Positions 7,935 through 47,828 of a DNA stretch of 64,000 nt are shown piece by piece. The notes beneath the pieces were generated by a model. That model had not been told where the DNA came from, did not search any database, and saw only the letters and a list, made by a program, of their open reading frames with translations. The translations under genes and the position numbers were made by a program. Location of the stretch: contig CAVZJB010000009.1 of the NCBI GenBank assembly GCA_963775425.1, forward strand, positions 272,616 through 336,615. The letters run 5' to 3'. The stretch's first letter is position 1. Each line of letters begins with the position of its first letter. This stretch comes from an uncultured delta proteobacterium. GTDB taxonomy: Bacteria > Myxococcota > UBA727 > VGSZ01.

Positions 7935-7948
7935 GGAGACGGCCGCAC

Positions 7949-31433: not shown

Positions 31434-32897
31434 TCAATACGAGCACGCGTCACCTTCGGCGACGAGCAGCGTGGAGCCGCCGATGTCGGCGCTCGCGTCG
31501 AAGTGCACGGTGCAGCCGACGATGGCCGAGACGCCCGGCTCGACGGGGACGCAGCGGTCGCCGTCGAGCGTGCACACCAGCGCGTCGTTCGGCGTGCACG
31601 CCGGCACAAAGACCTCGTCGAGCGGCTGCAGGATGCGCGCGGCGACGGCGGCGAGGACGTCGCCGCGGCCGGCGAAGTCGCATATGGAGCCGGACACGCC
31701 GAAGTTGGCGTCGACCACCGACTGCACGGCGCCGTCGACGCCGGAGGGAGAGCAGTCCTCGTTGGGGCCGGCGTTGGCGAGGGCGTGGACGCGGACCGAG
31801 AGCGTGCGCCCGTCGACGACGAGCTGGTCGAGCGCCGTCTGCGCCTGCGACGGCGTGAGGTTCGGGGTCTGGTCGGGGCTGTCACCGATGTACACGATGT
31901 GCAGTTGCGCGTCGGGCCGCAGGAACTCCCCGGTGTCGGTGGGGTACGCGGGCGCCGAGAAGTAGCCCGTCATGGAGCCGAGCGGCGTCTCGGTGCCGGA
32001 GCCGGCGAAGCTGCCGGCGTCCCAGAGCTGGCTCACGGCGCAGTCGAGATCCGTGCGAGCGTCGCTGGAGGTCTCGTCGACGAAGGGGGTGTTGCACAGC
32101 CGCGGGTCGCCGAAGGGGCCGACGGCGGCGTTGTTGAAGTCGTCGGTGTCGGTGACGGCGAAGCGCAGGTCGGCGCTGCGGGCGAAGACCGCGTCGAAGT
32201 GCGCGCCGATGGTGCCGATGATGTTGCCCTTGTCCGACATGGAGCCGGAGGCGTCGAGCACGTACAGCACGTCGTGACGCGCGCTGGGCGGCACGTTGAT
32301 CAGCACCGACGACGACGTGCTCACGCTGAAGTGGACGGGGATGGCGAAGTTGCCGCCGCCGACGTTGTCGTGGACGAGGACGCTGCCGGTGACGCCGGGC
32401 GGCGCGCCGACCTCCCAGGTGACGTTGAGCGTGGCGCCGCCCCCCTGGGCCAGCGCGAGGGTGGCGGGGGACACGCCGAGCACGGCGCGTGACGTCGTCA
32501 ACGTGAGGTCGACGTCGGCGAGCGCGGTGACGGCGACGCCGACCGAGAACGTGTGGCCCGCGCACATCGCGGGCTGCGCGGCGGCGGTGATCTCGGCGAC
32601 CGTGTCGATGAGGTCGACGGGCGGCTCGCCCTCTCCCTCGCCCTCGCCCTCGCCCTCGCCCTCTCCCTCGCCCTCGCCCTCGCCCTCGCCCTCGCCCGGC
32701 TCGCCCTCTCCCTCGCCGGGCTCGCCCTCCCCCTCGGCGCGGTCGCGGCACAGGCCGCCGTGGCAGATGCCGAAGCCTACGCAGTCGCCGTCGTCGGCGC
32801 ACTCGACCTGGCCGCGCAGCAGGCGGCACCCGGCGCCGCCGGCGACCAAGCACGCCAGGAGCAGGAGCGCGACCCCGGGGAGCAGCTCGCGGGTCAC
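31434..32897 (-). CDS. Probable lipoprotein with a (Gly-Glu)n linker and a von Willebrand factor A (VWA) domain
   Basis: GTG start in a GTGA overlap with the upstream gene. Signal peptide LLLLACLVAGGAGC, then a Cys knot (CADDGDCVGFGICHGGLC) and about 35 aa of GE repeats. MIDAS motif: DVLYVLDASGSMS. Confidence 0.75.
   Translation of the reverse strand: MTRELLPGVALLLLACLVAGGAGCRLLRGQVECADDGDCVGFGICHGGLCRDRAEGEGEPGEGEGEPGEGEGEGEGEGEGEGEGEGEGEGEPPVDLIDTVAEITAAAQPAMCAGHTFSVGVAVTALADVDLTLTTSRAVLGVSPATLALAQGGGATLNVTWEVGAPPGVTGSVLVHDNVGGGNFAIPVHFSVSTSSSVLINVPPSARHDVLYVLDASGSMSDKGNIIGTIGAHFDAVFARSADLRFAVTDTDDFNNAAVGPFGDPRLCNTPFVDETSSDARTDLDCAVSQLWDAGSFAGSGTETPLGSMTGYFSAPAYPTDTGEFLRPDAQLHIVYIGDSPDQTPNLTPSQAQTALDQLVVDGRTLSVRVHALANAGPNEDCSPSGVDGAVQSVVDANFGVSGSICDFAGRGDVLAAVAARILQPLDEVFVPACTPNDALVCTLDGDRCVPVEPGVSAIVGCTVHFDASADIGGSTLLVAEGDACSY
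32624..32737. repeat. In-frame (GGCGAG)n hexanucleotide array (complement shown on the plus strand)
   Basis: The plus strand reads ctcgcc/ctctcc units for about 110 bp. These encode EGEGEPGEGEGEPGEGEGEGEGEGEGEGEGEGEGEGE. Confidence 0.85.
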
Positions 32898-33718
32898 GAT
32901 CCCCCCAGCAGCGCGCCGGCGCCGGCGAGCGCGAGGCCGACGACGGCGGCGCCGCCCGCGACGGCGGCGGTGAAGACGACGGGCGGGCCGATGTCGAGCG
33001 CCTGGCGCTTGTCGCTCGGCGTGGCGCCGCTCCCCGCGGCGAGGCGGTCGTCGAGGACGAGGGCGAAGACGCCGGCGCCGACGGCGGCGAGGCCGGCCAC
33101 CCCGGCGAGGCCGCCGCCGCCGACGAGGAGCACGCCGGGGAGCACCGGCGCGTCGCCGCCGGCCGGCTTGGCGGGCGCGGCGCTCGAGGCCACCGACGCC
33201 GGCACCAGCGGGTGGAGCACGCGGGCGGCGAGCTCTCCCAGGCGCGGCGTGAGCGCGCCCGCCGAGGGCGCCGTGACGCTCGCGCGCTCCAGCGTCTGGC
33301 TGCCGCCGACGTCGAAGAGCCACACCTGCAAGACGCGCTCGTCGCCGAGCTTGCCGAGCGTGCCGGTGACGACGTAGTGAGCGCCGAACGCACCGGCGAT
33401 CTCGGCGAGGCAGCCGGCGTCGTTGCAGCCGGCGGCGGCCTTGTTGGCCTCGAGCGTGATGAGCGTGCGGATGTCGTTGCCGGTGGCGACCTTCGGGCGC
33501 GCCGCCGCCGGCCACCCCTTCACCGCCGTGCCCACCGCCTCGGCGAACAGCCCGTCGACGACGCGCGCCTCGTCCTCGTCGACGCCGACCGGCTTGAGGT
33601 CGAGCACGAGCAGGTCCGCCGCGCCGGCGCTCTCCGCGCCGGCGCTCTCCGCGACGACGGGCGACCCGGGGCCGGGGGCGCCGGCGGCGAGCAGGGCGGC
33701 GAAAGTGGCGGGCAGCAT
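32894..33718 (-). CDS. Secreted/anchored protein with a TolB-N/LpoB-like domain and Gly/Ala-rich C-terminal TM helices
   Basis: Start MLPATFAALLAAGAPG. Central region: LLVLDLKPVGVDEDEARVVDGL...CNDAGCLAEIAGAFGAHYVVTGTLGKLGDERVLQVWLFD. Two hydrophobic C-terminal segments. The function is only a fold-level guess. Confidence 0.5.
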   Translation of the reverse strand: MLPATFAALLAAGAPGPGSPVVAESAGAESAGAADLLVLDLKPVGVDEDEARVVDGLFAEAVGTAVKGWPAAARPKVATGNDIRTLITLEANKAAAGCNDAGCLAEIAGAFGAHYVVTGTLGKLGDERVLQVWLFDVGGSQTLERASVTAPSAGALTPRLGELAARVLHPLVPASVASSAAPAKPAGGDAPVLPGVLLVGGGGLAGVAGLAAVGAGVFALVLDDRLAAGSGATPSDKRQALDIGPPVVFTAAVAGGAAVVGLALAGAGALLGGS

Positions 33719-33802: not shown

Positions 33803-34126
33803 TCACGAGCCGCGGTAGGTGGAGTAGCCGAAGGGCGACAGCAGGAGCGGCACGTGGAAGTGCTGGGCTGCGTCCTTCACCACGAACGTGATCTGGGCGT
33901 GGGGATAGAACGTGTCCTGCCCGCTCTTTGCGTAGTGCGCGCCGACATCGAACGTCAGGCGGTGCGTCCCGGCGCCGACCTCGGCGAACGTCTTCACGCG
34001 GCCGTCGTCGTCGGTGACGGCGCTCTGCCTGTCCCCGAGCGTTGCGCCGCTCTCCAGCGTGACGGCGACGCCGGCGGCGGGCTGGCCGCGCGAGATGTCG
34101 AGGACGTGGGTGGTGATGCGGGCCAT
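33803..34126 (-). CDS. uraH: 5-hydroxyisourate hydrolase (transthyretin-like)
   Basis: MARITTHVLDISRGQPAAGVAV...HFHVPLLLSPFGYSTYRGS (the C-terminal YSTYRGS signature). The longer track ORF is a spurious extension. Confidence 0.85.
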   Translation of the reverse strand: MARITTHVLDISRGQPAAGVAVTLESGATLGDRQSAVTDDDGRVKTFAEVGAGTHRLTFDVGAHYAKSGQDTFYPHAQITFVVKDAAQHFHVPLLLSPFGYSTYRGS

Positions 34127-34247
34127 GCGTCGTCTCCGGTCCGTGGTGATGGTGCCGACAAGAGTGCCTCGACGGGACGATAGCGCGCCGGCAAGCTCGA
34201 GCGGACGGTCCGGCGTCGCGCGCGTCCCCCTCGTTGGCCTCGAGGCG

Positions 34248-35163
34248 ATGCGAGGCGCGTGCGCCGCACCCTGCGTGCTCAAGCAGCGCACCGCGCTCAT
34301 CGGCGTGGCCGCCTGGTGCATCGCCGCGTGGTGCGGGTGCGACCGCCCCGCGCACGGGGGCGCCTGCAACGAGGACTCGGATTGCGCGGGCGCCTCCTGC
34401 GTCCTCGGCGCGTGCGTGGTCCCGGCCGTGGTGTGCGGAGACGGCAAGCTCGACGCGGGCGAGCAGTGCGACGACGGCGCGCGCGCAGCCGGTGACGGCT
34501 GCGACGCCCGCTGCCTGATCGAGGCGGGCTGGGACTGCGGCGGCGCGCCGAGCGTCTGCCAGCGCTGTGGCGACGGGGTGCAACAGGGCACCGAGGCGTG
34601 CGACGACGGCGGGCTCGCGCCCGGCGACGGCTGCACCGCGGCGTGCTCCGTCGAGAGCGGCTACGCCTGCGCCGGCGCGCCGAGCGCGTGCGCCCCGGTG
34701 TGCGACGACGGCACGGCGACGCCGGCGACGGCTGCGACGAGAGCTGCGCGGTCGAGACGGGCTTTGCCTGCGACGACGGCGAGCCCTCGACGTGCATGGC
34801 CGTCTGTGGCGACGGGCTCGTGCGCGGCGCCGAGGGCTGCGACGACGCCAACGCCGCCGCCGGCTGCGACGCCGGCTGCACCCCGACCGTCGGCTTCGCG
34901 TGCGACGCCTCCGAGCCGTCGGTCTGCCGGACCTTGCAACGGGCGCGACCGCCTTGCACGGCGTCGACGCGAGCGAGCTTGTGCTCACGCCGACGGGCGC
35001 AACGCGATCCCCCCTCCCCGCGGTGGTCGCCGCCGCCGGTGCGCACGAGAGCCCTCCACACCGCTGCGAAGTCGCCACAGCGACACCGCTCCCAATTCCG
35101 TTTCGACTATTCCGCTATGCGGATCACTTCTCTAGGCGAGCCTGGCCAACCGAAGCGCGGTGA
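34248..35163 (+). pseudogene. Myxococcus-type cysteine-rich repeat (CGDG...CDDGN..GDGC) secreted protein, broken by at least two single-base deletions; 3' end unresolved
   Basis: Signal-like start MRGACAAPCVLKQRTALIGVAAWCIAAWCGC. Repeats: CGDGKLDAGEQCDDGARAAGDGCDARC and CGDGVQQGTEACDDGGLAPGDGCTAAC. After CDDG (about 34713) the motif continues one frame over: GDAGDGCDESCAVETGFAC...CGDGLVRGAEGCDD. A second shift lies near 34927. Only 34248 to about 34930 is supported by motifs. Confidence 0.55.
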
Positions 35164-36652
35164 TCCTCTTCTGCTCCTCGGCCGCGTTCTTGATCTCGGC
35201 GTCGCGGTCGTTCTTCACGCGCTCCTCGAGGATGGCGAGCATCTCCGCCGCCGACTTCCCCGACGCCATCACGATGAAGATGAAGCCGTGCTTGGCGAAA
35301 TACGCGTCGTTTTGCGCGGCGAGGCGCGCCTTGACGTCGTCGACGGCGCCGCCGACGGCGCGCTGCTCGTCGTCGGACCACGCGCGGGACGCTGCCGTCG
35401 CTGCCGCGGCCGCTCCGCCGCCGATGCGCGGGTGCGCCGCGAAAGCCTCGAGCCAGTCGTCGGTGACGAGGGCGTTGAACGCGGCGCGCACCGACTCGTC
35501 CAAGGCGCTCGGCGCGAGGAACGGCCGCGCCGCCAGCATCTTCTTCGCCCACGTGCATGAGCCGCAGCAGGAGAGGAACGCCGCCTCCGCCTCGGCGGGC
35601 GGCATGGCGTTCAGGCGCTTGACGCGCAGGGCCGCGCGCTCGTCGTCGTCGACGCGGGCGAACACGCGGAAGCGCGCGACGCCGCCGTCGGGGTGGACGC
35701 GGAGGCGAACGTGCGACACCGCCGGTTGCGCGCCCGACAAGGGGAACACGTGCCGCGTGTGCGGCCGCAGTTGCGTGCGCGGGAACAGCTCGCGCCACTC
35801 GCCGTCTGCGGAGCTGCCGGCGTCGACCGCGAAGCTCTCGGGGCAGTTGCCCTTGAAGTGCGACGTGTCGACGACGAGCCGCGTGGGCGTCGACCGCGCG
35901 CCGAGCTTCACGACGGCCCAGTCGTAGCCCGCGCGGCGCGCGCGGCGGGTCTCCCACCCGTCGTGCATGCCGCCGCTGTGCCCGGGGAAGAGCAGGTTGT
36001 GGCGGGAGCCGAAGAACATGTCGCTGCAGGCGAGGACGACGCCACCGAGCTCGGCGCCGGACACCTCGAGCTCGCCGTCGAGGCCGCCGTGGAGACGGAA
36101 GTCGGGCAGGGGCTCGCCGTACACACGCAGCCGCGCGACGCCGCCGTCGGGGAAGATGCGCAGGCGCACGTGGGTGAAGCGGTACGGCGACGACACCGCG
36201 AAGTCGTTCTTGGCGTTGCCGAGGAGGGGCGAGCGCGGCAACAGCGGGAACCACTCCGCGTGCTTGGCGATCTCTTGCGCGCTCGGGTAGCCGTCCACGC
36301 TCGTGCCCTCGAGCGCGCAGTGCGACGGGAAGTTGCCGCGGAAGAACGCGGTGTCGACGACGACGCCGCGGATGACGCCCGGTGCCCCGAGCCGCACCAC
36401 GCAGAAGTCCTCGTGCCACTCACCGTCGCGCGCGCCGCTGTTCTCGCGGTGGCTGCGCCGGCTCTCCCAGCCGTCCATCCACTTGCCGCGGTCGGTGTAC
36501 GCGTCCTCGTCCCAGACGGGCTCCTTGGCCTTCACGAGGTTTTCCATGCCGGCGAAGAAGTCGTCGCTGCACACCACGGCGGCGCCGCCGAGCCGCTCGT
36601 TGGCCAGGTCGACGAGGTCCTCGAACGAAGCGATGGCGTGCGTCGTCGTCAT
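35132..36652 (-). CDS. Bifunctional allantoicase / OHCU decarboxylase fusion
   Basis: The N-terminal 330 aa or so contain two allantoicase repeats (SDDFFAGMENL...GKWMDGWESRR and SDMFFGSRHNL...HDGWETRR). The C-terminal 165 aa or so form an OHCU decarboxylase (FLSCCGSCTWAKKMLAARPF...AAHPRIGG...YFAKHGFIFIV). Confidence 0.8.
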   Translation of the reverse strand: MTTTHAIASFEDLVDLANERLGGAAVVCSDDFFAGMENLVKAKEPVWDEDAYTDRGKWMDGWESRRSHRENSGARDGEWHEDFCVVRLGAPGVIRGVVVDTAFFRGNFPSHCALEGTSVDGYPSAQEIAKHAEWFPLLPRSPLLGNAKNDFAVSSPYRFTHVRLRIFPDGGVARLRVYGEPLPDFRLHGGLDGELEVSGAELGGVVLACSDMFFGSRHNLLFPGHSGGMHDGWETRRARRAGYDWAVVKLGARSTPTRLVVDTSHFKGNCPESFAVDAGSSADGEWRELFPRTQLRPHTRHVFPLSGAQPAVSHVRLRVHPDGGVARFRVFARVDDDERAALRVKRLNAMPPAEAEAAFLSCCGSCTWAKKMLAARPFLAPSALDESVRAAFNALVTDDWLEAFAAHPRIGGGAAAAATAASRAWSDDEQRAVGGAVDDVKARLAAQNDAYFAKHGFIFIVMASGKSAAEMLAILEERVKNDRDAEIKNAAEEQKRITALRLARLA

Positions 36653-36709: not shown

Positions 36710-38164
36710 TCAACCGCGGCCGAGGATCAGCCGGCCGTCGCGCGCGGTGACGTCGTCGCCGCGGCGAAAGACCTGTTGCCCGCGCAGCCACGTGGAGCGC
36801 ACCACGCCGAACAGCTCGCGGCCGTGGTACGGCGTGAGCTTGTTCTTGTGCGCGAGCTTCTCCTGGTCGACGACGAAGGTCGCGTCGGGGTCGATGACGG
36901 CGAAGTCGGCGTCCTTGCCCTTGGCGATGCTCCCCTTGCGAGAGAGCCCCGCGAGGAGCGCGGGCTCTTCGCTCATCCAGCGCGCCACGTCGACGAGCGT
37001 CCGTCCGCGGGCGCGCGCGCCGGTCCACGTGGCGGGCAGCGTGAGCTGGAGCGAGGAGATGCCGCCCCACGCGGCGTCGAAGTCGCCGCGCTCGACCTGC
37101 TTGAGAGCGACGGTGCACGGCGAGTGGTCGCTGACCACGCTGTCGAGGACGCCGCGGGCGAGCGCGTCCCAGAGGGCGTCCTGGTTTTCGCGCTCGCGGA
37201 TGGGCGGCGTGCACTTGAACCAGGTGGCGCCGTCGTCGATCTCCTCGGCGCAAAACGACAGGTAGTGCGGGCAGGTCTCGACGGTGAGCGGCAGGCCGTC
37301 GTCGCGCGCGTCCTCCAGCAGGGCCAGGGCCTCCGACGACGAGTGATGCACGATGTGCACGGGCCCACCGCGGGCGCGACACATGCGGACCATGAGCTCG
37401 ACGGCGGCGTTCTCCGACGCCTTGGGCCGGCTCTCGAGGTGGAAGCGATAGCTCCGCCGCGACAAGGCGCCGGAGGCGAGGGCGGCCTCGAGCGCGTGCG
37501 CGGCCTCGTCGATGGGCCCCTGCAATTCGGCGTGGGCGAGCAACGGGGCGCGCGCGTCCCGCAGGATCCCGAGGGAGCGATCCAGGTCCGCCTCGGAGAC
37601 GTTCTTGAACTCGGGGACGCCCGAGTCGATGAGGAAGCACTTGAAGCCGAGCACGCCGCGCTCGACCAGCGGGACCAGGTCCTCGTGGTTCCCCGGCACC
37701 ACGCCGCCCCAGAAGCCGACGTCGACGGCGAGCTGGTTCTTGGCGGCGTCGAGCTTGTCCTCGAACGCGGCGACGCTCGTGGTGGGCGGCAGGGAATTGA
37801 GCGGCATGTCGACGAGGGTGGTGACGCCGCCGCGCGAGGCCGCTTGCGTGGCGGTGGCGAACCCCTCCCACGCCGTGCGCCCGGGCTCGTTCACGTGCAC
37901 GTGGCTGTCGACGAGGCCGGGCATCACGAGCGAATCGAGGAAGTCCACGACGTCGACGCCGACGGGCACGCGGCCGCGCTCAACGACGTCTACGATCGCG
38001 CCGCCGTCGTCGACGAGCACCGCCGCCGGCCGCACGGCGCCGCCGGTGACCACGCGCGTCGACGTGAACGCCCGCGCGATCCCCCCGGCGGGCGCGCCGC
38101 CGCGCCACGCCGAGCGACCCTCGTCGTGGCGTGGGGGCTTGTTGTCGCTCGCCCCCGTCGTCAC
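36710..38164 (-). CDS. allB: Allantoinase (cyclic amidohydrolase)
   Basis: Motifs: PGLVDSHVHVNEPGRTAWEGF, GFKCFL, VHIVHHSS, VSDHSPC. The GTG start at 38164 lies in a GTGA overlap with the upstream stop. A later internal start is also possible, because the N-terminal 35 aa or so are not conserved-looking. Confidence 0.85.
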   Translation of the reverse strand: MTTGASDNKPPRHDEGRSAWRGGAPAGGIARAFTSTRVVTGGAVRPAAVLVDDGGAIVDVVERGRVPVGVDVVDFLDSLVMPGLVDSHVHVNEPGRTAWEGFATATQAASRGGVTTLVDMPLNSLPPTTSVAAFEDKLDAAKNQLAVDVGFWGGVVPGNHEDLVPLVERGVLGFKCFLIDSGVPEFKNVSEADLDRSLGILRDARAPLLAHAELQGPIDEAAHALEAALASGALSRRSYRFHLESRPKASENAAVELMVRMCRARGGPVHIVHHSSSEALALLEDARDDGLPLTVETCPHYLSFCAEEIDDGATWFKCTPPIRERENQDALWDALARGVLDSVVSDHSPCTVALKQVERGDFDAAWGGISSLQLTLPATWTGARARGRTLVDVARWMSEEPALLAGLSRKGSIAKGKDADFAVIDPDATFVVDQEKLAHKNKLTPYHGRELFGVVRSTWLRGQQVFRRGDDVTARDGRLILGRG

Positions 38165-39807
38165 GGCGCCCCCGCGGCCGCGGGGCCGAAGGCGAAGTCG
38201 GCGGTGACCTCGCCGCCGGCGGGCACCGTCACGTGCACCGTCTTCTTGCCGCCGGCGTCGCTCCACGCGGTGAGCTCGACGTCGCCGGCGGGGACGCCGT
38301 CGAGGACGAAGGCCCCGTCGTCCTTGGTGACGGCGAACCACGGGTCGTCGACGACGCCGATGTGGTTGATCATCCACGGGTGGATGTCGCAGCGCGTCTC
38401 CACCATCAGCTCGGGCGCACGGAACACCTTGGTGTCCCGCTGCCCCTGCGCGGGCTGGTTGATGCTGAAGGTGTCGTTGTTTTGCGCCACCGAGCGGATG
38501 TTGTGAAAGACCGGGTCGGTGTTCACGAAGGTGACGGGCTGTCCCACGCGCACGCCGCTCACGCGCGGCTGGTAGAGGCACCCCTTCTGCTCGACGGTGA
38601 CCTCGCCCTGCGGCGCGGGGATGGCGTACTTGTCGACGCCGCCGGTGACGGCGACGAACGCCTCCGCGAGCTTTCCGTCATGAACGACCGCGGCGGGGAT
38701 GGACAGCGGCCCGTCGTGGCCGGCCTCACAGCCGCCGTAGAGCGCCACCTCGCGTGGCGCGGGGACGTCCCCCTGCCATGTGACGCTGCCGCGGATGCGG
38801 CCGGTGGCCGTGATGGGCGTGCCCGTCTTGGCTGCGTTCACGACGGGCGCGGCGCGGTCGTGGTCCGAGGCCAGCGTGCCCGCGACGGACGCGACGATGG
38901 TGACGACGACGAGCGTGCCGAGGAAGCCGAGCATGACCGTGGCCGGCGGGTCCACCTTGTTCATCCACCACTTCACGCCGGCGCCGGCGCAGCAGACCAC
39001 GACGAGGATCACCCAGTTCCACCCGATGGTGGTGCCGGCCACGTGGGCGGCGGCGCCGTAGGTGAACGGGAAGTGGTTGGAGATCATGATGAAGATGACC
39101 GGGTAGGTCATGTAGTGGTTGTGCTTGCTGCGGCGCTTGGCCGAGTACGCCTTGGCCGCGTCGGGCTCCTTGCCCGTCTTCACGCTCTCGACGAGGTTTC
39201 GCTGCGCCGGGATGATGCGCATCCAGACGTTGGCCACCATGCACGTGCCCATCACCGCCGCGGTGTGGATGTACGCCGCGCGGCCCGACAGGAGGTGCGT
39301 GAACGCGAAGGCGATGGCCGCGAGGCCGATGACCGAGATGGCCACCGTGAGCGGCGGGTTCTGCGACGCGGCGCCGGCGAGCCGGGAGGACCACAGGAGG
39401 TCGTAGGCGACCCAAGCGACGACGAGCGTGCCCATGCAGATGGCGGTGGCCACCTGATGCGAGACCACCGGGTGAGCGGCGTCGACGAGGAGGACGCCGC
39501 CGCCGAGGTGGTAGAGCACGATGAGGAGGAAGAAGCCGGTCATCCAGGTGAACGCGGCCTCCCACTTGAACCAGTGAAGCGTCGACGGCAGCGCGCTCGG
39601 CGCCACCAGCTTCTTTTCGACCTCGTAGAAGCCGCCGGAGTGCACCATCCACAGGACTCCCTCGAGCCCCTCCCGCTTCTCCTTGGGCTTCTCCATGTGG
39701 CTGTCGAGCCAATGGAAGAAGATGGACGAGCCGATCCACATGATGCCGGCGATGAGGTGCGCCCAACGCAGGACGAGGTTCAAGCCTTCACTGACGAGCG
39801 GATTCAT
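38161..39807 (-). CDS. puuD: Membrane urate hydroxylase (PuuD-type N-terminal domain) fused to a cupredoxin-like domain and a carboxypeptidase-regulatory-like domain
   Basis: The N-terminus LNLVLRWAHLIAGIMWIGSSIFFHWL plus about 8 TM helices match the PuuD/urate-oxidase-N family. The C-terminus has type-1 copper ligand spacing (VFHNIRS ... CDIHPWM = C-x2-H-x2-M). No CxxCH haem motif anywhere. Confidence 0.75.
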   Translation of the reverse strand: MNPLVSEGLNLVLRWAHLIAGIMWIGSSIFFHWLDSHMEKPKEKREGLEGVLWMVHSGGFYEVEKKLVAPSALPSTLHWFKWEAAFTWMTGFFLLIVLYHLGGGVLLVDAAHPVVSHQVATAICMGTLVVAWVAYDLLWSSRLAGAASQNPPLTVAISVIGLAAIAFAFTHLLSGRAAYIHTAAVMGTCMVANVWMRIIPAQRNLVESVKTGKEPDAAKAYSAKRRSKHNHYMTYPVIFIMISNHFPFTYGAAAHVAGTTIGWNWVILVVVCCAGAGVKWWMNKVDPPATVMLGFLGTLVVVTIVASVAGTLASDHDRAAPVVNAAKTGTPITATGRIRGSVTWQGDVPAPREVALYGGCEAGHDGPLSIPAAVVHDGKLAEAFVAVTGGVDKYAIPAPQGEVTVEQKGCLYQPRVSGVRVGQPVTFVNTDPVFHNIRSVAQNNDTFSINQPAQGQRDTKVFRAPELMVETRCDIHPWMINHIGVVDDPWFAVTKDDGAFVLDGVPAGDVELTAWSDAGGKKTVHVTVPAGGEVTADFAFGPAAAGAP

Positions 39808-40372
39808 CGACGATCTCTTTCGCGCTGAAGGTGTTGTCTGCCCAGGTATGCACGGGCACGCGGCGCGCGTCGAGGAGCGCGGTGCGCACCGGGTGGGCGA
39901 TGGCGCCGTCGGCGCCCGCGACGCCGTAGACGTTGAAGAGCGACGCGAACGCCTCCACCACGTCGGGCGCGCCCGTGGCGAGGGTGAACCCCGCGTCGCC
40001 GGCGACCGCGAAGCGCGCCGCGTACGCGCGCAGCGCCGCCGGCGTGTCCCGCGCCGGATCGAGCGTGACGACGAGGACGCGGGCGCCGTCGCGGCGTGCC
40101 TCGGCGAGCTTCTTCATGGTGAGCGGACACATGGTCTCGACGGGGCAGTGCGTATAGACAAAGCCCACGGCGACGGGCCCGGCGACGTCACCAAGCTCGA
40201 ACGCTTGCCCGTCCTGGTCGACGAGCGGAAACGACGGCACCGGTTGTCCGGGCCGCCACGCGGCGACGTCGGCGCGCCAGGCGTCGTGGCTGCGACAGGA
40301 CGTGAGCGCGAGCGCGGCGCCGAGGAGCGCGGCGCACACCGTCGGCCACGAGGCACGTTCGTCAGGGCGCAC
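39788..40372 (-). CDS. SCO1/SenC-family copper chaperone (thioredoxin fold), probable lipoprotein
   Basis: Motifs: LALTSC lipobox and VGFVYTHCPVETMCP (the CxxxCP copper site). The start is uncertain (GTG 40372 chosen; the track ORF starts at 40495). It overlaps the puuD start by 20 nt. Confidence 0.7.
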   Translation of the reverse strand: MRPDERASWPTVCAALLGAALALTSCRSHDAWRADVAAWRPGQPVPSFPLVDQDGQAFELGDVAGPVAVGFVYTHCPVETMCPLTMKKLAEARRDGARVLVVTLDPARDTPAALRAYAARFAVAGDAGFTLATGAPDVVEAFASLFNVYGVAGADGAIAHPVRTALLDARRVPVHTWADNTFSAKEIVDESARQ

Positions 40373-40560
40373 CTGGGGGCCAATAGCGGCGATGACGGCG
40401 GGTGCCAACGGCGGGGGCGCGCGGCGCCGTGAGGTCGGAGGCAACACGAGCGCGCCCACGCTGTGACGGTAGCGCGCCCGAGCGGGCGTGGGCATTGACG
40501 GTCCGTCCGGCGGGAAGGAAACGGGCTGATGATCCTCTGCACGCCTTCCCCGGTCGGCCC

Positions 40561-41922
40561 ATGAGCAACACGTCGCTGCCCCCCACGTTCCTCGCCGAGA
40601 CCACCGCGCGCCTGCGGGCCGCCAACGAGCCCGTCACCCGTCGCTTCGTCGGCGAGAGCGCCTCACGCCAGCCGGTGCACACGGTCTACGGCGGGGCGCA
40701 GCTCTTCAAGAAGGACGCGGCGTGGAAGCTCGGCCGCGGCGCGCTCAAGGCGCTCGACGAGTACGCGCCCTCGGCGGACGTGTTCGCGCGCGCCGCGGGC
40801 ATCCGCGCCGACGTCGCCGGCGTCGTGTACGAGCGCGTGCGCGAGAAGCTCGTGCGCGAGCCCGTCGAGGACATGCGCATCGACTTCGAGGACGGCTACG
40901 GCAACCGCCCCGACGACGAAGAAGACGCCGAGGCGGTGCGCTGCGCGCACGAGGTGGCCGCCGGCATGAAGGATCCGCGCGCGCCGGGCAGCGGGCTGCC
41001 GCCGTTCATCGGCATTCGCATCAAGACCTTCTCGGACGAGCTGTTCGCGCGCGCGGTGCGCACCCTCGACCTTTTCGTGAGCGCGCTCGTCAAAGACACC
41101 GGCGGTAAGCTGCCGGACGGCTTCGTCATCACGCAGCCGAAGATCACCACGGCCGAGCACGTCGCCGTCCTCGCCGACGTCCTCGAAGCGCTGGAGGAGC
41201 GCCTCGGCCTGTCGTCGGGGGCGTTGCAGCTCGAGGTGATGATCGAGGCGACGCAGTCCATCCTGGACATCGACGGCAGGATCGCCCTGCCCAGGATCCT
41301 CGACGCCGCGCGCGGCCGCTGCGTGGCCGCGCACTTCGGGACCTACGACTACACCGCGTCCAACAACATCACCGCCGCGTACCAGTCCATGGAGCACGCG
41401 GTCTGCGACTTCGCCCGCACCTTCATGTTGCAGGCGTACGCGGGCACGGGCGTGTGGCTCAGCGACGGAGCCACCAACGTGATGCCGGTGCCGGTGCACC
41501 GCGCGGCCGACGGCCACGCGCTCACCGCCGCGCAGGTCGCCGAGAACGTGTCGGTGGTGCACGCGGCGTGGGCGCTGCACGTGCGCCACATCCGCCACTC
41601 GCTGGAAAACGGCTACTACCAGGGCTGGGACCTCCACCCCGCGCAGCTCCCCACGCGCTACGGCGCGCTCTACGCGTTCTTCCTCGAGGCGCTCCCCGCG
41701 GCGAGCGAGCGCCTGAAGAACTTCGTGCAGAAGGCCGCGCAGGCCACGCTCGTGGGCGACGTCTTCGACGACGCCGCCACGGGCCAGGGCCTGTTGAACT
41801 TCTTCCTGCGCGGCATCAACTGCGGCGCCCTCAAGGAGGACGAGGCCCTCGCCACGGGCCTCACCCTCGACGAGCTGCGCGGCCGCAGCTTCGTCAAGAT
41901 CTTGAAGAACCGTCGGGGTTGA
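40561..41922 (+). CDS. HpcH/CitE-like (aldolase / citrate-lyase beta superfamily) TIM-barrel protein
   Basis: Start MSNTSLPP. Motifs: RIDFEDGYG (compare the DLEDAV motif of CitE), FIGIRIKTF, LQLEVMIEATQSI, HFGTYDY. The assignment is at superfamily level only. Confidence 0.55.
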   Translation: MSNTSLPPTFLAETTARLRAANEPVTRRFVGESASRQPVHTVYGGAQLFKKDAAWKLGRGALKALDEYAPSADVFARAAGIRADVAGVVYERVREKLVREPVEDMRIDFEDGYGNRPDDEEDAEAVRCAHEVAAGMKDPRAPGSGLPPFIGIRIKTFSDELFARAVRTLDLFVSALVKDTGGKLPDGFVITQPKITTAEHVAVLADVLEALEERLGLSSGALQLEVMIEATQSILDIDGRIALPRILDAARGRCVAAHFGTYDYTASNNITAAYQSMEHAVCDFARTFMLQAYAGTGVWLSDGATNVMPVPVHRAADGHALTAAQVAENVSVVHAAWALHVRHIRHSLENGYYQGWDLHPAQLPTRYGALYAFFLEALPAASERLKNFVQKAAQATLVGDVFDDAATGQGLLNFFLRGINCGALKEDEALATGLTLDELRGRSFVKILKNRRG

Positions 41923-41932: not shown

Positions 41933-42943
41933 ATGCCCGTCGCCAATCCGGTCCAGTTCGCCGTGGTGCGCGAGGATCCCGTCGTCGAGCTCTCGCTCCT
42001 CGCGGACGTCCGGCGCGGCGCTTCGACCGCGGCGCTGCTCATCGCCTCGGGCGGCTGCACGGCGCTCACGGTCGCGGCGGCGCGCCCCGACGTGGCGCTC
42101 ACGCTGCTCGATGCGAACCCCGCCCAGCTCGCCCTCGTCGAGCGAAAGCGCGCCGCGCTCGCCGCGCACGCGCCGGGGTCGGCCGCGCGGCGGCGCACCT
42201 TCGGCGTCGACGCGGACGACGCGGCGTCCCTGTCGGGGTGCGGCAACTTCGAGTCGCTGTTTCGCGGGCTGCGCGCCGTGCTCGATGACCTGGTGATGCC
42301 GGCGGCCGAGCGGCGCGCGCTCCTCGCGGGCGACGGCGGCGCGGGCGCGCTCACCGGCAACAGGTACTGGCCGGTGGCGTTCGAGATGTTCTTCTCCGAC
42401 GCCATGCTCGAGGCCATGTTCGGGCCCGAGGCCACGCAGCACGCGGACAAGGGCTCGTACCCGGCGTACTTCCGCCGCGTCGTCGAGCGCGCCCTCGCCG
42501 GCGGCGCGGGGGGAGCGCCGGCGCGCGCGAACCCGTATCTTCACCACGTGTTGCTCGGCCACTACCTCGACGGCGCTCTGCCGGCGTTCCTGGAGCGCAT
42601 GACATGCGCGCAGGCGGAGGGCGCGCGCTTCAATCTCGTCGAGGGGAGCGTGACGCGGGGGCCGTCCTTCTCGGCGTTCGACCTCGTGTCGCTGTCGAAC
42701 CTCTTCGACTGGATGAGCGACGACGACGTGGCCGCGACGTGCGCGCGCCTCGCCGCCGAGTCCAAGCCCGGCGCCGTCGTGGTCTTGCGCCAGCTCAACA
42801 ACCGCGCTCCGGTCGAGCGCTTCTTCGGCGACGCGTTCCGCTTCGACGACGCACGCGCCGCGGCGCTCCTCGCCCGCGACCGCAGCATGTTCTACGAGCG
42901 CCTCGTGGTCGGCACGCGGGTCGCCGGCGGGGGTGGCGCATGA
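41933..42943 (+). CDS. BtaA-like (DUF3419-type) class I SAM-dependent enzyme
   Basis: Motifs: FAVVREDP, LLIASGGCTALT, LLDANPAQLALVE, YWPVAFEMFFSD, NPYLHHVLLGHY, SLSNLFDWMSDDD. It starts 10 nt after the upstream stop. Confidence 0.55.
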   Translation: MPVANPVQFAVVREDPVVELSLLADVRRGASTAALLIASGGCTALTVAAARPDVALTLLDANPAQLALVERKRAALAAHAPGSAARRRTFGVDADDAASLSGCGNFESLFRGLRAVLDDLVMPAAERRALLAGDGGAGALTGNRYWPVAFEMFFSDAMLEAMFGPEATQHADKGSYPAYFRRVVERALAGGAGGAPARANPYLHHVLLGHYLDGALPAFLERMTCAQAEGARFNLVEGSVTRGPSFSAFDLVSLSNLFDWMSDDDVAATCARLAAESKPGAVVVLRQLNNRAPVERFFGDAFRFDDARAAALLARDRSMFYERLVVGTRVAGGGGA

Positions 42944-43689
42944 GCGCGGCGGCGCCCCCGGAGAGCGCGGGTCGCTCGGCTGCCTCGCCGGAGCTCGTGC
43001 GGCTCATCGACGACGTGCTCGCCGACGTCGACTACGCCGAGAACCCCTACTTCACCGCGCTGCGCGACGGGAGCTTTTCGCGCGAGGACTTCCTCGAGAC
43101 GCAGCTCCAATTCCACGCGGCGGTGACGTTCTTCTCGCGGCCCATGGCGGCGCTGGCGGCCAAGATCCCGTCCGCGGAGCTGCGCGTGGAGATCGTGCGC
43201 AACGTGTGGGAGGAGCACGGCGAGGGCGATCCCGCGCGCATGCACGGCGCCACCTTCGTCGAGCTCCTGGCGCGCCTCACCGGCGGCGCCGCCGACGAGG
43301 TGCGGCGGGAGATCGAGCGCCGCCCCCTCTGGCCGGAGGTGCGCGCGTTCAACACCCTCCTCGCCGGCGTCTGCGTGCTCGACGAGTACCTCGTGGGCGT
43401 CGGCTGTATGGGCATCGTCGAGCGGATGTTCGCCGAGATCTCCGGCTGGATCGGAAACGCCATCGTCGCCCGCGGGTTCCTGCCCGCCGACCGGATGATC
43501 CACTACAGCCTTCACGAGTCCCTCGACGTCAAGCACGCGTCCGACTTCTTCGCCGTGCTCGACGCCGCCTGGGGCGCCGCCGACGAGCGCTACCGCATCG
43601 AGCAAGGCCTGCGCATGGGCGCCATCGCGTTCGACCAGCTCTACGCGCGCCTGTACCGCTGCCGCGACCGCCGCTGGGTGCGCCCGTGA
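42940..43689 (+). CDS. Heme-oxygenase-like diiron (iron-containing redox enzyme family) protein
   Basis: ATGA overlap with the upstream stop. Motifs: NPYFTALRDGSFSREDFLETQLQFHAAVTFF, VWEEHGEGDPARMHGATF, HESLDVKHA (helical E/H-rich ligand pattern). Confidence 0.6.
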   Translation: MSAAAPPESAGRSAASPELVRLIDDVLADVDYAENPYFTALRDGSFSREDFLETQLQFHAAVTFFSRPMAALAAKIPSAELRVEIVRNVWEEHGEGDPARMHGATFVELLARLTGGAADEVRREIERRPLWPEVRAFNTLLAGVCVLDEYLVGVGCMGIVERMFAEISGWIGNAIVARGFLPADRMIHYSLHESLDVKHASDFFAVLDAAWGAADERYRIEQGLRMGAIAFDQLYARLYRCRDRRWVRP

Positions 43690-44846
43690 CGCGCCCGCGT
43701 CGTCGACCGCGCGCGGGGCGCCCGCCCACGGGCCGGTGGGCCGCCGCGCCCGTCACCGCCCTCGTCCTCGCCGTCACCGGCGCGCTCGCGGGCTGCCCCG
43801 CGCCGGCGAGCGAGGATCCGTTCGAGCTCGTCATCGCCGCCAAGAAGGCGGCCGCCGACGTGCGCGCCGACGGCGCCCGCGTCGCCTACACCGACGGCCT
43901 GGAGGCGAGCAGCGACGGCCAGGGGGTCGGGGTCGACGTCGTCGTCGCCGAGCGCGGCGAGGAGATCCTGCGCGCGCCGGCCGACGTCGCCGTGCGCGGG
44001 ATGGCGCTCGGCAAGACCTCCGTGGCCACGCTCGAGCTCGCCGAGGCCGCCGCCGTCAATCAGCACGTGGTCATCCGTCCCCTCGACGGCGGCGACGCCA
44101 TCGATGTCCCTCGCACGGACGCGCCCCTCGCCCTCGCCGCCGTCGACGACGGCGCCGGCTACCTCTGGATCGAAGCGCGCCTCGACGGCACCGACGACAC
44201 CGGCGGCGGCGTCGACGGCCTCTATGTGCTCACGCTCGTCGAGGCCGGCGAGGACGGTGTGGTGACCAGGCGCACGCCCTTCGACGCCGGAGAGATCCGC
44301 GCCCCCGCCGCCGTCCTCGAGCTGTTCCCGCGCCCCTTCGGCGTGCTCGTCGCCGGTGACGACGTCTACTTCGGCTGGGACTCCGACCTCTGCCGCGGCG
44401 GCTCCGTGCTCTACCGCGTGAGCCGCGCCGACGGCCACGGCGTCGCGGAGTGGCGCGGGCGCGTCGCCGCCGTCGGCCCCGTCGACGGCACGACGTGCGA
44501 GTGCGACACCACCGTCGCCGACAACGTCACGGACCGCGGCCAGGCCGTCGCGCTGGACGCGGGGACACCGGTGGTGGTGGGCGGTGTCTTCGACTGCGCC
44601 TCCGTGAGCGCGGAGCGCGGCTTCGTGCGTGACGGCGAGGACAGCGCCGAGGTCGAAGACGCGCTCCGCTTCGCGGGCTTCTCGTCGAGCGGCGTCACGG
44701 CCACCACGCCCACGGGAGTGGTGAAGCTCGTCGGCGTCGGCGAGGGCGCCGTCGTGAACGCCCACTCGCGCGTGACCGGCCTCGCGGTGGACGGCGGCGA
44801 CGTGTTCTTCAGCCTCGAGGACGGCGTCTACCGCCTCACGCCGTGA
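43686..44846 (+). CDS. Probable lipoprotein, unknown function
   Basis: GTG start in a GTGA overlap. Signal peptide WAAAPVTALVLAVTGALAGC. The remainder is beta-rich. No family recognised. Confidence 0.55.
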   Translation: MTRPRRRPRAGRPPTGRWAAAPVTALVLAVTGALAGCPAPASEDPFELVIAAKKAAADVRADGARVAYTDGLEASSDGQGVGVDVVVAERGEEILRAPADVAVRGMALGKTSVATLELAEAAAVNQHVVIRPLDGGDAIDVPRTDAPLALAAVDDGAGYLWIEARLDGTDDTGGGVDGLYVLTLVEAGEDGVVTRRTPFDAGEIRAPAAVLELFPRPFGVLVAGDDVYFGWDSDLCRGGSVLYRVSRADGHGVAEWRGRVAAVGPVDGTTCECDTTVADNVTDRGQAVALDAGTPVVVGGVFDCASVSAERGFVRDGEDSAEVEDALRFAGFSSSGVTATTPTGVVKLVGVGEGAVVNAHSRVTGLAVDGGDVFFSLEDGVYRLTP

Positions 44847-44906
44847 CGCGGCGGTCCGGCCGCCGTTGACCGCGAGCGCCCGGCGCGGTCTCACTGCACC
44901 CAGGGC

Positions 44907-45707
44907 ATGCGCTTCTTCAAGATCACCCGCGAGATCCTGCCGCGCTGGCAGGAGAAGCTCGAGGCGCTCGAGCAACTGAGCGTCTATCCCCTCGGCGCCG
45001 ACGCCTTTCGCCTCACGCACGGCGCGGACTACTTCGCGTTCTTCGAGCGCATGGGCGAGGTCCACTACTACGCGATCGAGGAGGGCGGCGCGCTCGCCGC
45101 GGTCGCTTGCGGCGTGTTGCGGCCGGCGTCGGTGCGGGCGCCGCGTCGCTGGTACGCCGCGGACCTGAAGGTGCACCCGGCCTTTCGTGGGAGACACCTG
45201 CCGATCACGCTGCTCCGCCGCGCGTTCCTCCAAAACTGGCTCCGCTGCGGGCGCGGGTACGCGGTGGCGATGGACCCGTCCGACGGGCGCGTGCCTCCGG
45301 GGGTGCGGCTGATGGCGCACTTCAAGTGGATCCCGATGTCATTGATGGCGCTCGCCAAGATCGACGTCTACGCCGCCGACGAGCACGGGATGAAGCGCGC
45401 CGCGCCGCTCATCGCGCGTGGAGGCGTGCGGCCTCGATACGTATCGCTCGCAGGGGTCAAGGACCTCGTGCTCGAGAGCTCCAAGGCGCCGCTCGATCTT
45501 CTTCACGTGTCGTTTGCGCCCACCGGCGACGACCGGGTCTACGAGGCGCCGCAACGCGGGGCCACGCACATGTGGTGCGTGCCACGTGAGCACGCGCTGG
45601 CCGGCGCGCTCGCCGCCGAGGGCTTCACGCCCACGGCGAGCGCGACGCTCTTGCACCACCGGCTCGCGCGTATGGATTGGGCGACGCTCGAGACCTGCGA
45701 GATCTGA
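44907..45707 (+). CDS. Hypothetical protein, possibly GNAT-like acyltransferase
   Basis: 266-aa ORF. YAADLKVHPAFRGRHLPITLLRRAF resembles the GNAT acyl-CoA-binding motif. The assignment is weak. Confidence 0.45.
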   Translation: MRFFKITREILPRWQEKLEALEQLSVYPLGADAFRLTHGADYFAFFERMGEVHYYAIEEGGALAAVACGVLRPASVRAPRRWYAADLKVHPAFRGRHLPITLLRRAFLQNWLRCGRGYAVAMDPSDGRVPPGVRLMAHFKWIPMSLMALAKIDVYAADEHGMKRAAPLIARGGVRPRYVSLAGVKDLVLESSKAPLDLLHVSFAPTGDDRVYEAPQRGATHMWCVPREHALAGALAAEGFTPTASATLLHHRLARMDWATLETCEI

Positions 45708-45709
45708 AC

Positions 45710-47662: not shown

Positions 47663-47828
47663 GGCCCCCGAATGAACAACTCGATCGCCCTCGCGGCCGA
47701 TCCATCGCCGCTGGCTTCGTTGCTCGTCGGTCACGTGGCGACGGCCACGCTCCCTCCTCGCGCCTCGCCATCGGCGCGCCTCGACCGCGATCATCGACCG
47801 ACTTGTTCATTCGAGGGCCCTTAGCCCT
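47654..47828. repeat. 175-bp element bounded by 34-bp imperfect inverted repeats, located exactly between two convergent stop codons
   Basis: Left arm 47654-47687: agggcttagggcccccgaatgaacaactcgatcg. The reverse complement of 47795-47828 is agggctaagggccctcgaatgaacaagtcggtcg (30/34 identical). The asnB-like stop (47660-62) lies inside the left arm. The NRPS stop (47829-31) abuts the right arm. Confidence 0.6.

Follow-up and report, generated by a model that had tools for sequence, protein, structure and literature searches.

PuuD is the least understood among the three known routes of urate oxidation, and no active form of it has ever been purified. In the only experimental paper on PuuD (Doniselli et al. 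2015; PMC4562309), which describes it as the integral-membrane cytochrome c urate oxidase of Agrobacterium fabrum, all full-length PuuD are said to carry cytochrome c with a strictly conserved CXXCH. A purine locus in the window analysed here (the whole stretch of DNA, 64 kb) encodes a PuuD homologue of 548 residues from which CxxCH is entirely absent. A sequence-only reading of this locus had proposed a copper-based electron relay together with its own Sco1 chaperone. We found support on computational grounds (family, fold, ligands, topology and gene context) for a copper relay that would replace haem in PuuD, while the part attributed to Sco has to be narrowed.

A translationally coupled purine-catabolism operon

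The genes at the centre of this report are the following.

33803-34126, minus strand: 5-hydroxyisourate (HIU) hydrolase, 107 aa, start MARITTH (TIGR02962, E 8.2e-34, above cut-off; PF00576)
35132-36652, minus strand: allantoicase-OHCU decarboxylase fusion (PF03561, E 1.6e-92; PF09349, E 2.5e-41)
36710-38164, minus strand: allantoinase, allB (TIGR03178, E 2.7e-160, above the curated cut-off)
38161-39807, minus strand: puuD of the copper type, 548 aa, predicted membrane urate oxidase/hydroxylase homologue with a periplasmic copper tail
39788-40372, minus strand: Sco1/SenC-like lipoprotein (PF02630), GTG start at 40372, longest open reading frame to 40495
40402-41922, plus strand, divergent: DUF6986 protein (PF22484, E 4.9e-180)

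The minus-strand genes form a translationally coupled purine-catabolism operon in the order sco, puuD, allantoinase, allantoicase/OHCU decarboxylase and HIU hydrolase. The sco stop and the puuD ATG overlap by exactly 20 nt (ATGAATCCGCTCGTCAGTGA), which implies coupled translation, and the puuD stop overlaps the GTG start of the allantoinase gene by 4 nt (GTGA at 38161-38164, as read from the sequence). Both TIGR02961 and TIGR03180 match the allantoicase/OHCU decarboxylase fusion above their cut-offs. The same purine context recurs in five related loci (L081-L085), and in a survey of 84 puuD loci, which fall into three PuuD classes including 20 of the copper type and 44 of the cytochrome type, allantoicase and HIU hydrolase genes lie within 6 kb of copper-type puuD in 18/20 and 17/20 loci, respectively. 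The divergent DUF6986 gene adjoins the purine cluster in L081-L084 as well, so that this association is kept, and 19 of the 84 loci, spanning all three classes, have it no more than 6 kb from puuD.

The membrane domain belongs to the PuuD family

The PuuD protein, which begins with MNPLVSEGLNLVLRWAHLIAGIMWIGSS, can be divided as follows, all on the minus strand.

38854-39807: predicted membrane domain (DUF989/Urate_ox_N), residues 1-318, 8 helices, N- and C-terminus predicted outside
38737-38811: first strands of a transthyretin-like (CarboxypepD_reg) beta-sandwich, about residues 333-357
38578-38730: invariant tail cysteine pair, Cys360 (38728-38730) and Cys410 (38578-38580)
38347-38616: predicted amicyanin-like type-1 copper cupredoxin, about residues 398-487
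38371-38505: predicted copper ligands His435 (38503-38505), Cys473 (38389-38391), His476 (38380-38382) and Met479 (38371-38373)
38173-38346: C-terminal strands of the transthyretin-like beta-sandwich, residues 488-545

The proposed PuuD-type N-terminal domain is there at full length: PF06181 (Urate_ox_N) matches residues 6-305 with an E value of 3.7e-95 (profile positions 4-290 of 295), and the AlphaFold2 model of the whole protein (pLDDT 91.9) has 8 membrane helices. Lysine and arginine are enriched in loops I-II and V-VI, matching the published PuuD topology (PMC4562309); this bias in alternate loops and the even helix count predict an N-out/C-out arrangement with the tail in the periplasm. 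In an alignment of 118 homologues, the invariant residues of the membrane domain include R14, H17, H56, E83, R176, S227, N230 and H245. As in A. fabrum PuuD, a full-length 8-helix DUF989/Urate_ox_N domain with this predicted topology and a periplasmic C-terminal redox domain is thus encoded among purine-catabolism genes that include HIU hydrolase and OHCU decarboxylase.

Could the domain nevertheless do something else in this sub-family, such as transport or the oxidation of another purine intermediate, so that the relay would serve a different reaction? PuuD was assigned by genetics alone, in one organism and with no purified-enzyme assay (PMC4562309), the N-domains of copper-type proteins share only ~40-50% identity with those of cytochrome-type proteins, and none of the NCBIfam models matched the PuuD protein. 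However, PF06181 covers the full domain, no other uricase gene was found beside the HIU hydrolase and OHCU decarboxylase genes in the window or in syntenic loci, the association of copper-type puuD with purine genes in the 84-locus survey is equal to or stronger than that of the cytochrome type, and the complementation achieved with a soluble uricase in the published work speaks against a role of the family in transport (PMC4562309). We regard a function other than urate oxidation as very improbable.

The tail is predicted to be a cupredoxin nested in a beta-sandwich

The cupredoxin-like module proposed for the C terminus emerged from a family profile, a structural model and structural comparison. 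Pfam Copper-bind gave a marginal match (E 0.13), but an alignment of the family profile with amicyanin (E 1e-7) puts the four ligands in register, H435, C473, H476 and M479 falling on the ligands in PHNVH and CTPHPFM of amicyanin. Structure prediction of residues 320-548 with AlphaFold2 reached a pLDDT of 95.2, and Foldseek matched this model to cupredoxins with E values of 9e-7 to 1e-4 and TM scores of ~0.7 to amicyanin and plastocyanin. Profile search and modelling of the region from about residue 330 to 548 thus agree on a Greek-key cupredoxin fold with Cys, His and Met aligned with the amicyanin copper ligands. The type-1 spacing noted from sequence (VFHNIRS and CDIHPWM) is present, and its four ligands are invariant in the 118-homologue alignment. 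At least 118 full-length homologues have this architecture: C-x2-H-x2-M is kept in the tail of 118 of the 120 best homologues, among which a single outlier (P0042) has CxxCH.

The position of the carboxypeptidase-regulatory-like beta-sandwich needs correction. The sandwich exists, with CarboxypepD_reg matching residues 492-539 (E 6.8e-6, slightly under the Pfam cut-off), but it does not simply follow the cupredoxin as had been suggested; because its first strands (~333-357) come before the copper domain, the cupredoxin appears to be nested as an insertion within it. Cys360 and Cys410 are invariant in the 118 PuuD homologues and in 152 of 153 representatives of the module, and they likely form a periplasmic disulfide. 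The parallel with amicyanin from Paracoccus denitrificans is close in the His...Cys-x2-His-x2-Met set with its short loop, aligned residue for residue, and would extend to the periplasmic electron-carrier role of amicyanin and other single-domain type-1 copper proteins. It ends with the covalent fusion to a membrane enzyme, the nesting in a transthyretin-like sandwich, the extra cysteine pair and an identity of ~20-25%.

Copper and cytochrome c tails are mutually exclusive

Among the surveyed loci, CxxCH occurs in 0/20 copper-type tails and C-x2-H-x2-M in 0/44 cytochrome-type tails. Judged by these sequence signatures, the copper module and cytochrome c are mutually exclusive and occupy the same position in PuuD, so that in comparison with A. 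fabrum PuuD a type-1 copper module of ~215 residues stands in place of the CXXCH cytochrome c. Copper-type PuuD is a widespread variant, distinct from the cytochrome type, and we found no paper that describes it. Automated annotation already names this form "PuuD" or "plastocyanin". The third class consists of short proteins (270-290 aa) that have no redox domain at all, yet lie within purine clusters, which suggests that the membrane domain may not strictly need a fused carrier. The copper tail is not a workaround for missing haem maturation, since two CCP_MauG genes in the window indicate that the organism encodes c-type cytochromes.

The copper module belongs to a large family associated with aa3 oxidases

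The module (~210-215 residues) is not confined to PuuD. Among 1.84 billion representatives, 384 relatives of the tail were found at E<=1e-30 and 4,730 at E<=1e-10, most of them stand-alone lipoproteins of 250-270 aa, and at least 152 of 153 module representatives have all four copper ligands. The amicyanin model of NCBIfam scores these free modules far under its cut-off. The module is also fused to a PQQ-type beta-propeller and, in P0231 and L088 (7806-9311), to subunit II of cytochrome oxidase, in which the CuA motif is intact (CAEFCGIGHYRM). Stand-alone module genes lie directly upstream of CtaA/CtaB/DUF420 in two loci (L086 and L087), and in L088 between a Rieske/cytochrome b/multihaem operon and CoxB-CoxA-CtaA-CtaB. 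Because in these cases it is fused to aa3 oxidase, or encoded beside genes for this oxidase and for haem-A synthesis, the module is most likely a respiratory electron carrier. No oxidase genes were found in the 64-kb window, so that the acceptor proposed for PuuD is deduced solely from the behaviour of the module elsewhere.

These data bear on whether the copper module is the obligatory exit for electrons. They might instead pass to quinone or another membrane carrier, with the tail serving in docking, scaffolding or regulation, for instance as a tether to an oxidase supercomplex. This would accommodate the short PuuD of otherwise complete purine clusters, the transthyretin-like sandwich around the cupredoxin, a fold often used in binding, and the fact that DUF989 has no known cofactor or electron path (PMC4562309). 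It is harder to square with the four ligands, whose invariance in fused and free modules would be unexpected for a purely structural tail, with the exact substitution of the module for cytochrome c, or with its fusion to subunit II of an oxidase, an enzyme for which fused electron donors are an established design. We therefore consider this alternative unlikely, and retain the module as the probable exit.

A Sco-like gene is coupled to puuD in one sub-clade

The existence of a SCO1/SenC gene overlapping puuD and encoding CPVETMCP was confirmed, the open reading frame at 39788-40495 (minus strand) matching PF02630 (SCO1-SenC) above the cut-off with an E value of 4.7e-17. Starting from the GTG at 40372, the product has a lipoprotein signal peptide ending in LALTSC. 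Its key features, all on the minus strand, are as follows.

40295-40306: lipobox LTSC
40124-40147: Cx5C motif CPVETMCP
39893-39895: conserved His201 (numbered from the ATG at 40495)

Against Sco proteins in the PDB, the profile gives E values of 6e-14 to 1e-9, and both cysteines and the histidine align, with a 2-residue insertion. The canonical CxxxC is absent from this Sco, which has C-P-V-E-T-M-C instead, and Cx5C is found in all 11 relatives examined. The histidine, in IAHPV, aligns with that of 4hde and 4wbj and is invariant in the four puuD-linked Sco proteins (window, L081, L082 and L001). The protein therefore resembles Sco1/SenC chaperones (Bacillus subtilis Sco/YpmQ, Bradyrhizobium ScoI and human SCO1) in its thioredoxin-like fold family, its predicted membrane-anchored periplasmic location, and the alignment of two cysteines and a distal histidine with their copper ligands. 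It differs by its C-x5-C-P-L-T-M motif, where theirs is CxxxC, and by its coupling to the gene of a putative type-1 copper enzyme, rather than to an oxidase operon. This coupling, in this lineage, also sets the locus apart from that of A. fabrum PuuD.

Whether this Sco serves PuuD is a more delicate issue. It could be the general Sco of the organism, active either in CuA assembly of cytochrome oxidase or as a periplasmic thiol-disulfide reductase, and its co-transcription with the purine operon would then be incidental. A Sco gene lies within 6 kb of copper-type puuD in just 3/20 surveyed loci, and near none of the 10 Bdellovibrionota puuD loci with full 6-kb flanks (L002, L003, L006-L011, L013 and L028). 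The same Cx5C subfamily is found where puuD is not nearby, its neighbours being SurA-like isomerases in L091 and, in L094, a MopE-motif copper protein, while in L083 and L084 a WCxGC thioredoxin-like lipoprotein occupies the position equivalent to Sco, which fits a redox need better than metal delivery. Moreover, no need for Sco is known among type-1 copper proteins. On the other hand, the 20-nt overlap is kept in L081 and L082 at 64-69% protein identity, Sco directly precedes puuD in L001 and L089 too, and the protein keeps both cysteines and the histidine through which solved Sco proteins bind copper. An incidental, general Sco is thus a serious contender, which we rate at somewhat less than even. 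What is clear is that Sco adjacency is limited to a sub-clade of copper-type PuuD and is not a general feature: the notion of an "own Sco1 chaperone" holds as linkage in the window and its near relatives, but fails as a general trait, and the motif is Cx5C rather than CxxxC.

Discussion

The computed domain family membership, fold, ligand conservation, topology and gene context are best explained by a PuuD-family urate oxidase/hydroxylase in which a type-1 copper relay, in the place of cytochrome c, passes electrons on to the respiratory chain. We consider this full explanation likely; copper binding, the direction of electron flow, an oxidase as acceptor and the role of Sco are its inferred parts. 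PuuD would be the first enzyme of a pathway leading from urate through 5-hydroxyisourate, OHCU, allantoin and allantoate to ureidoglycolate. Urate oxidation would take place on the cytoplasmic side of the 8-helix domain; the electrons would then traverse this domain to reach the type-1 copper, and from there enter the aerobic respiratory chain, most probably at CuA of an aa3-type oxidase, an acceptor that would avoid the release of H2O2. The module would have been recruited from the large family of lipoprotein-anchored cupredoxins serving aa3 oxidases. In this lineage, the translationally coupled Sco-like lipoprotein probably supplies the cupredoxin with copper or keeps its cysteines reduced, which is the least certain part of the proposed mechanism.

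Fusing a mobile electron carrier to its partner enzyme is a design also seen in caa3-type oxidases and quinohaemoprotein dehydrogenases. There the fused carrier is a haem c domain, whereas here it would be type-1 copper, and in the subunit II fusion the module is N-terminal, unlike the C-terminal domain of caa3-type oxidases. Taken together, our observations raise a broader and more tentative idea, which has perhaps somewhat less than an even chance of being correct. In Acidobacteriota, Myxococcota, Bdellovibrionota and relatives, a very large, uncharacterised class of membrane-anchored respiratory carriers with type-1 copper (a cupredoxin in a transthyretin-like sandwich) may do the work of cytochrome c, linking dehydrogenases or bc-type complexes to aa3 oxidases; copper-type PuuD would wire purine oxidation directly into this copper-based respiratory branch; and in some lineages a Cx5C Sco would be dedicated to loading the type-1 site. 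If true, the latter would be a role for Sco that is so far undemonstrated.

For the study of urate oxidation, a single blue-copper centre in a PuuD variant would offer a strong optical and EPR handle on urate-driven electron transfer, and the copper-type form may be easier to express heterologously because it needs no cytochrome c maturation system. Beyond PuuD, the tail points to anchored cupredoxins that form a large and as yet unstudied family with ties to aa3 oxidases, which bears on how the respiratory chain is built, and on the copper demand, of abundant soil and predatory bacteria.

A putative urate hydroxylase with a predicted copper domain

The gene studied here, puuD, lies in a window of ~72% G+C, within the following group of genes.

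40402-41922, plus strand: DUF6986 protein (PF22484, E 4.9e-180)
39788-40495, minus strand: sco, open reading frame (ORF) with a likely GTG start at 40372, where the original finding ended, and a SCO1/SenC match (E 4.7e-17)
38161-39807, minus strand: puuD, ORF of 548 residues
Downstream of puuD: allantoinase (TIGR03178, E 2.7e-160)
Downstream of puuD, after allantoinase: allantoicase/OHCU decarboxylase fusion gene
Downstream of puuD, beyond an inserted plus-strand gene: 5-hydroxyisourate (HIU) hydrolase

The inserted gene (34014-35135, plus strand), on the strand opposite to the allantoicase/OHCU decarboxylase and HIU hydrolase genes that it separates, encodes an acidic, cysteine-rich protein of repeats (TIGR02232 myxo_disulf_rpt, E 1.2e-23). 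Together with named homologues, this repeat suggests that the window comes from a member of the Myxococcota. Residues 6-305 of PuuD cover almost the entire Pfam profile PF06181 (Urate_ox_N, formerly DUF989; E 3.7e-95), and no CxxCH occurs anywhere in the 548-residue protein. The sco stop and the puuD ATG overlap by exactly 20 nt, the puuD stop and the GTG start of allantoinase overlap by 4 nt, and the Sco signal is of the lipoprotein type, ending LALTSC. The descriptive part of the sequence-only reading, which had reported a PuuD-type N-terminal membrane domain, the absence of CxxCH and a SCO1/SenC gene directly upstream with a 20-nt overlap, is correct in every detail.

The PuuD tail is predicted to be a cupredoxin with a type-1 copper site. 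Searched alone, the tail gives no significant cupredoxin match in Pfam (best Copper-bind, E 0.13) and no match in NCBIfam, and CarboxypepD_reg matches residues 492-539 just below the cut-off, so that profile-to-PDB and fold comparisons were needed. First, 118 full-length homologues (38-74% identity) all have His435, Cys473, His476 and Met479, and C-x2-H-x2-M is kept in 118 of the 120 best homologue matches. Second, a profile built from these full-length homologues picks up amicyanin when run against the PDB (E about 1e-7), with the four PuuD residues falling on the amicyanin copper ligands (PHNVH, CTPHPFM). Third, an AlphaFold2 model of residues 320-548 (pLDDT 95.2) matches NirK cupredoxin domains, the Nitrosopumilus purple cupredoxin, amicyanin, pseudoazurin and plastocyanin in Foldseek (E 9e-7 to 1e-4, TM about 0.7 on target). 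These three independent tests, of conservation, profile and predicted fold, settle the fold question, and the proposal of a cupredoxin-like module with type-1 copper ligand spacing holds.

The same proposal placed a beta-sandwich after the cupredoxin. The sandwich is present; the order appears to differ. Residues 330-357 spliced to 488-548 align end to end with CarboxypepD_reg (positions 2-80 of 82), with a small gain in score. This points to an insertion: the cupredoxin, a few additional strands and an invariant Cys360/Cys410 pair would all sit within the beta-sandwich. The full-length AlphaFold2 model (pLDDT 91.9) has eight membrane helices, with Lys and Arg clustered in loops I-II and V-VI and none in the alternate loops. 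Model and charge pattern reproduce the N-out/C-out topology published for PuuD (PMC4562309), which would put the copper module in the periplasm. In characterised PuuD, a cytochrome c occupies exactly this spot.

Three classes of PuuD in purine gene clusters

We surveyed PuuD tails in 85 loci, which comprise the three classes below, one truncated and one unclassified locus.

Classes of PuuD by C-terminal region
Copper type: 20 loci; tail with C-x2-H-x2-M, without CxxCH
Cytochrome c type: 44 loci; tail with CxxCH, without C-x2-H-x2-M
Short type (270-290 aa): 19 loci; no redox domain

Copper and cytochrome tails are mutually exclusive across these loci. We found the copper type in Myxococcota and Bdellovibrionota, and also in a few Acidobacteriota, Candidatus Xenobia and other metagenome-assembled genomes. 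In neighbour-joining trees, which are too rough for domain swaps to be counted, neither the tail modules nor the N-terminal domains form clean single clades by architecture. It has been stated that purine-linked DUF989 proteins always carry cytochrome c (PMC4562309), a generalisation that the copper type contradicts. The short class, consisting of the membrane domain only (L040 5995-6819; also L039, L044, L048, L054 and others), contradicts it too and raises the question of which electron acceptor these forms use. Short puuD genes are found mostly in Pyrinomonadaceae and other Acidobacteriota, directly after allantoicase, OHCU decarboxylase and HIU hydrolase genes.

Is the copper type a urate enzyme? 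Gene context says yes. In two metagenomic near relatives (L081 and L082, 64-69% identity) the whole arrangement is kept, including the 20-nt overlap: a divergent DUF6986 gene, then Sco, PuuD, allantoinase, allantoicase/OHCU decarboxylase and HIU hydrolase. The same purine genes lie alongside copper-type genes of about 44-48% identity (L083-L085), with xanthine dehydrogenase also in L083 and L084. Allantoicase lies within 6 kb in 18 of 20 copper-type loci and HIU hydrolase in 17. Of the 44 cytochrome-type loci, 20 have allantoicase and 23 have HIU hydrolase within that distance. Bdellovibrionota copper-type loci have, after puuD and HIU hydrolase, one ORF of ~1,550 residues (L002 7874-12586; similar in L004, L006-L011, L013 and L028) with similarity to allantoicase and OHCU decarboxylase and much unassigned sequence, which may be a giant multi-enzyme purine-catabolism fusion.

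The DUF6986 protein, which has weak malate-synthase/HpcH-aldolase TIM-barrel similarity, has homologues in four of these loci.

L081, 5947-7332: DUF6986 homologue
L082, 6081-7418: DUF6986 homologue
L083, 5754-7199: DUF6986 homologue
L084, 5759-7207: DUF6986 homologue

It is found within 6 kb in 19 of 84 loci and accompanies purine clusters of all three PuuD classes. Our literature search found no description of it, and we regard it as a candidate enzyme for a late step that has no assigned gene, with ureidoglycolate or glyoxylate as its substrate.

An atypical Sco protein

The Sco encoded next to puuD differs from canonical Sco proteins in having C-x5-C-P-L-T-M in place of CxxxC. A profile of four puuD-linked Sco proteins matches solved Sco structures (E 6e-14 to 1e-9). 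Once a two-residue insertion is allowed, the two cysteines and the distal histidine align. The gene adjoins puuD in the window and in L081, L082, L001 and L089, and is close by in L095. It is absent beside the remaining copper-type puuD genes, those of all 10 fully flanked Bdellovibrionota loci among them. The gene linkage behind the idea that this PuuD has its own Sco1 chaperone is thus real in the window and its four counterparts and does not extend to copper-type PuuD in general; a universal partnership is rejected, Sco being absent beside most surveyed loci and present elsewhere. Weak "Sco" matches near short PuuD (L039, L040, L044) proved to be Bcp-type peroxiredoxins.

It is plausible that Sco matures the PuuD copper site in this lineage, a role that fits coupled translation. 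Nearly as likely, this is a general Sco that is merely co-expressed with puuD; the Cx5C subfamily also adjoins SurA-like isomerases and, in L094, a MopE-motif copper protein. There, the Sco gene (3842-4507) lies beside the gene for a 924-aa protein (4510-7284, minus strand) that carries five putative copper-binding motifs of the MopE type (PF11617, E 2.2e-37). In L083 (7231-7911, minus strand) and L084 (7250-7909, minus strand), Sco's position is taken by a divergently transcribed lipoprotein gene. Its product has a WCxGC thioredoxin motif, matches AhpC-TSA only weakly (E 0.0086) and may act in place of Sco as a periplasmic partner in redox reactions or maturation.

A wider family of anchored cupredoxins

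Searching the 229-residue tail against 1.84 billion representative proteins returned 384 relatives at E<=1e-30 and 4,730 at E<=1e-10. The best 150 matches are mostly not PuuD; they are stand-alone proteins of 250-270 residues with a lipoprotein signal and the complete module, named by NCBI only "carboxypeptidase regulatory-like domain-containing protein." At least 152 of 153 module representatives keep the copper ligands and the additional pair of cysteines. In P0231, a comparison protein, and in L088, the module is at the N terminus of cytochrome c oxidase subunit II (CoxB TIGR02866 above cut-off, COX2_TM and COX2 present, CuA motif CAEFCGIGHYRM intact); in P0265 it is joined to a PQQ-type beta-propeller, and in P0163 it is duplicated in tandem. 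In L086 and L087, a stand-alone module gene directly precedes CtaA, CtaB and DUF420. The order in L088 is a Rieske/cytochrome b/multihaem cytochrome operon, stand-alone module, module-CoxB, CoxA, CtaA and CtaB, the free copy (7001-7699) and the CoxB-fused copy (7806-9311) being side by side.

Because of these oxidase fusions and gene neighbourhoods, the module is best read as a membrane-anchored respiratory electron carrier feeding aa3-type oxidases. Its fusion to various enzymes parallels that of cytochrome c in caa3 oxidases and quinohaemoproteins. An electron-carrier role of the module supports the proposed copper relay from an independent direction and suggests an acceptor. We also considered whether the copper form is a workaround for a lack of c-type cytochromes. 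The window has two di-haem CCP_MauG-like genes (16162-17760, plus strand; 55142-57121, minus strand) with two CxxCH each, which means that the organism makes c-type cytochromes, and this explanation is rejected.

Other genes in the window

Downstream of the purine genes, 41933-52211 looks like a small biosynthetic cluster, with a DUF3419 methyltransferase-like gene, a haem-oxygenase-like iron enzyme (PF14518), an unassigned 661-aa ORF (45677-47662, plus strand) and a 1,460-aa formyltransferase/adenylation/carrier/thioesterase protein. The compositional extreme, up to 79-81% G+C at 24001-28000, lies inside a 1,208-codon ORF (24060-27683, minus strand) beside an SbcD-like gene (27687-28982, minus strand); from synteny with L081, this ORF is probably SbcC. 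A long ORF (31434-33515, minus strand) with a Gly-Glu(-Pro) repeat run (GEGEPGEGEGEP...GEGEGEGE) has no family match and overlaps several alternative ORFs, so that it is uncertain which of them is the real gene. Flagella are generally said to be absent from myxobacteria. In this otherwise myxobacterial-looking genome, a flagellar cap gene, FliD (60366-61745, minus strand, E 5e-43), with neighbouring ORFs to 63711, indicates that the lineage may be unusual.

A proposed electron path and its significance

We propose that urate oxidation would take place on the cytoplasmic side of the membrane domain, where the conserved residues His56, His78, Lys81 and Glu83 occupy loop I-II and the beginning of helix II. 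Electrons would then cross the membrane domain; invariant His17, Arg176 and His245 are in or at the ends of membrane helices, toward the periplasmic side by predicted topology. They would arrive at the type-1 copper, whose fold and ligands are those described here, the remainder of the path being what we infer, and would be handed to an aa3-type oxidase, an acceptor suggested by the module's fusions and neighbourhoods. The product, 5-hydroxyisourate, would pass to the hydrolase, decarboxylase, allantoinase and allantoicase of the operon, enzymes assigned by curated models.

Literature searches found no description of PuuD with a cupredoxin, plastocyanin or copper, nor of the nested module, and existing automated labels read "uncharacterized membrane protein/plastocyanin" (JGI) and "urate hydroxylase PuuD" (NCBI); the copper variant is thus new to the literature searched, though automated labels already register its copper domain. 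Judged by sequence, predicted fold and context, the original finding is real and was correctly interpreted: copper-type PuuD is a known enzyme family with a familiar swap of haem for copper. Some wider relevance comes from an atypical Sco and from a tie to a large and unstudied family of anchored cupredoxins that are associated with oxidases.
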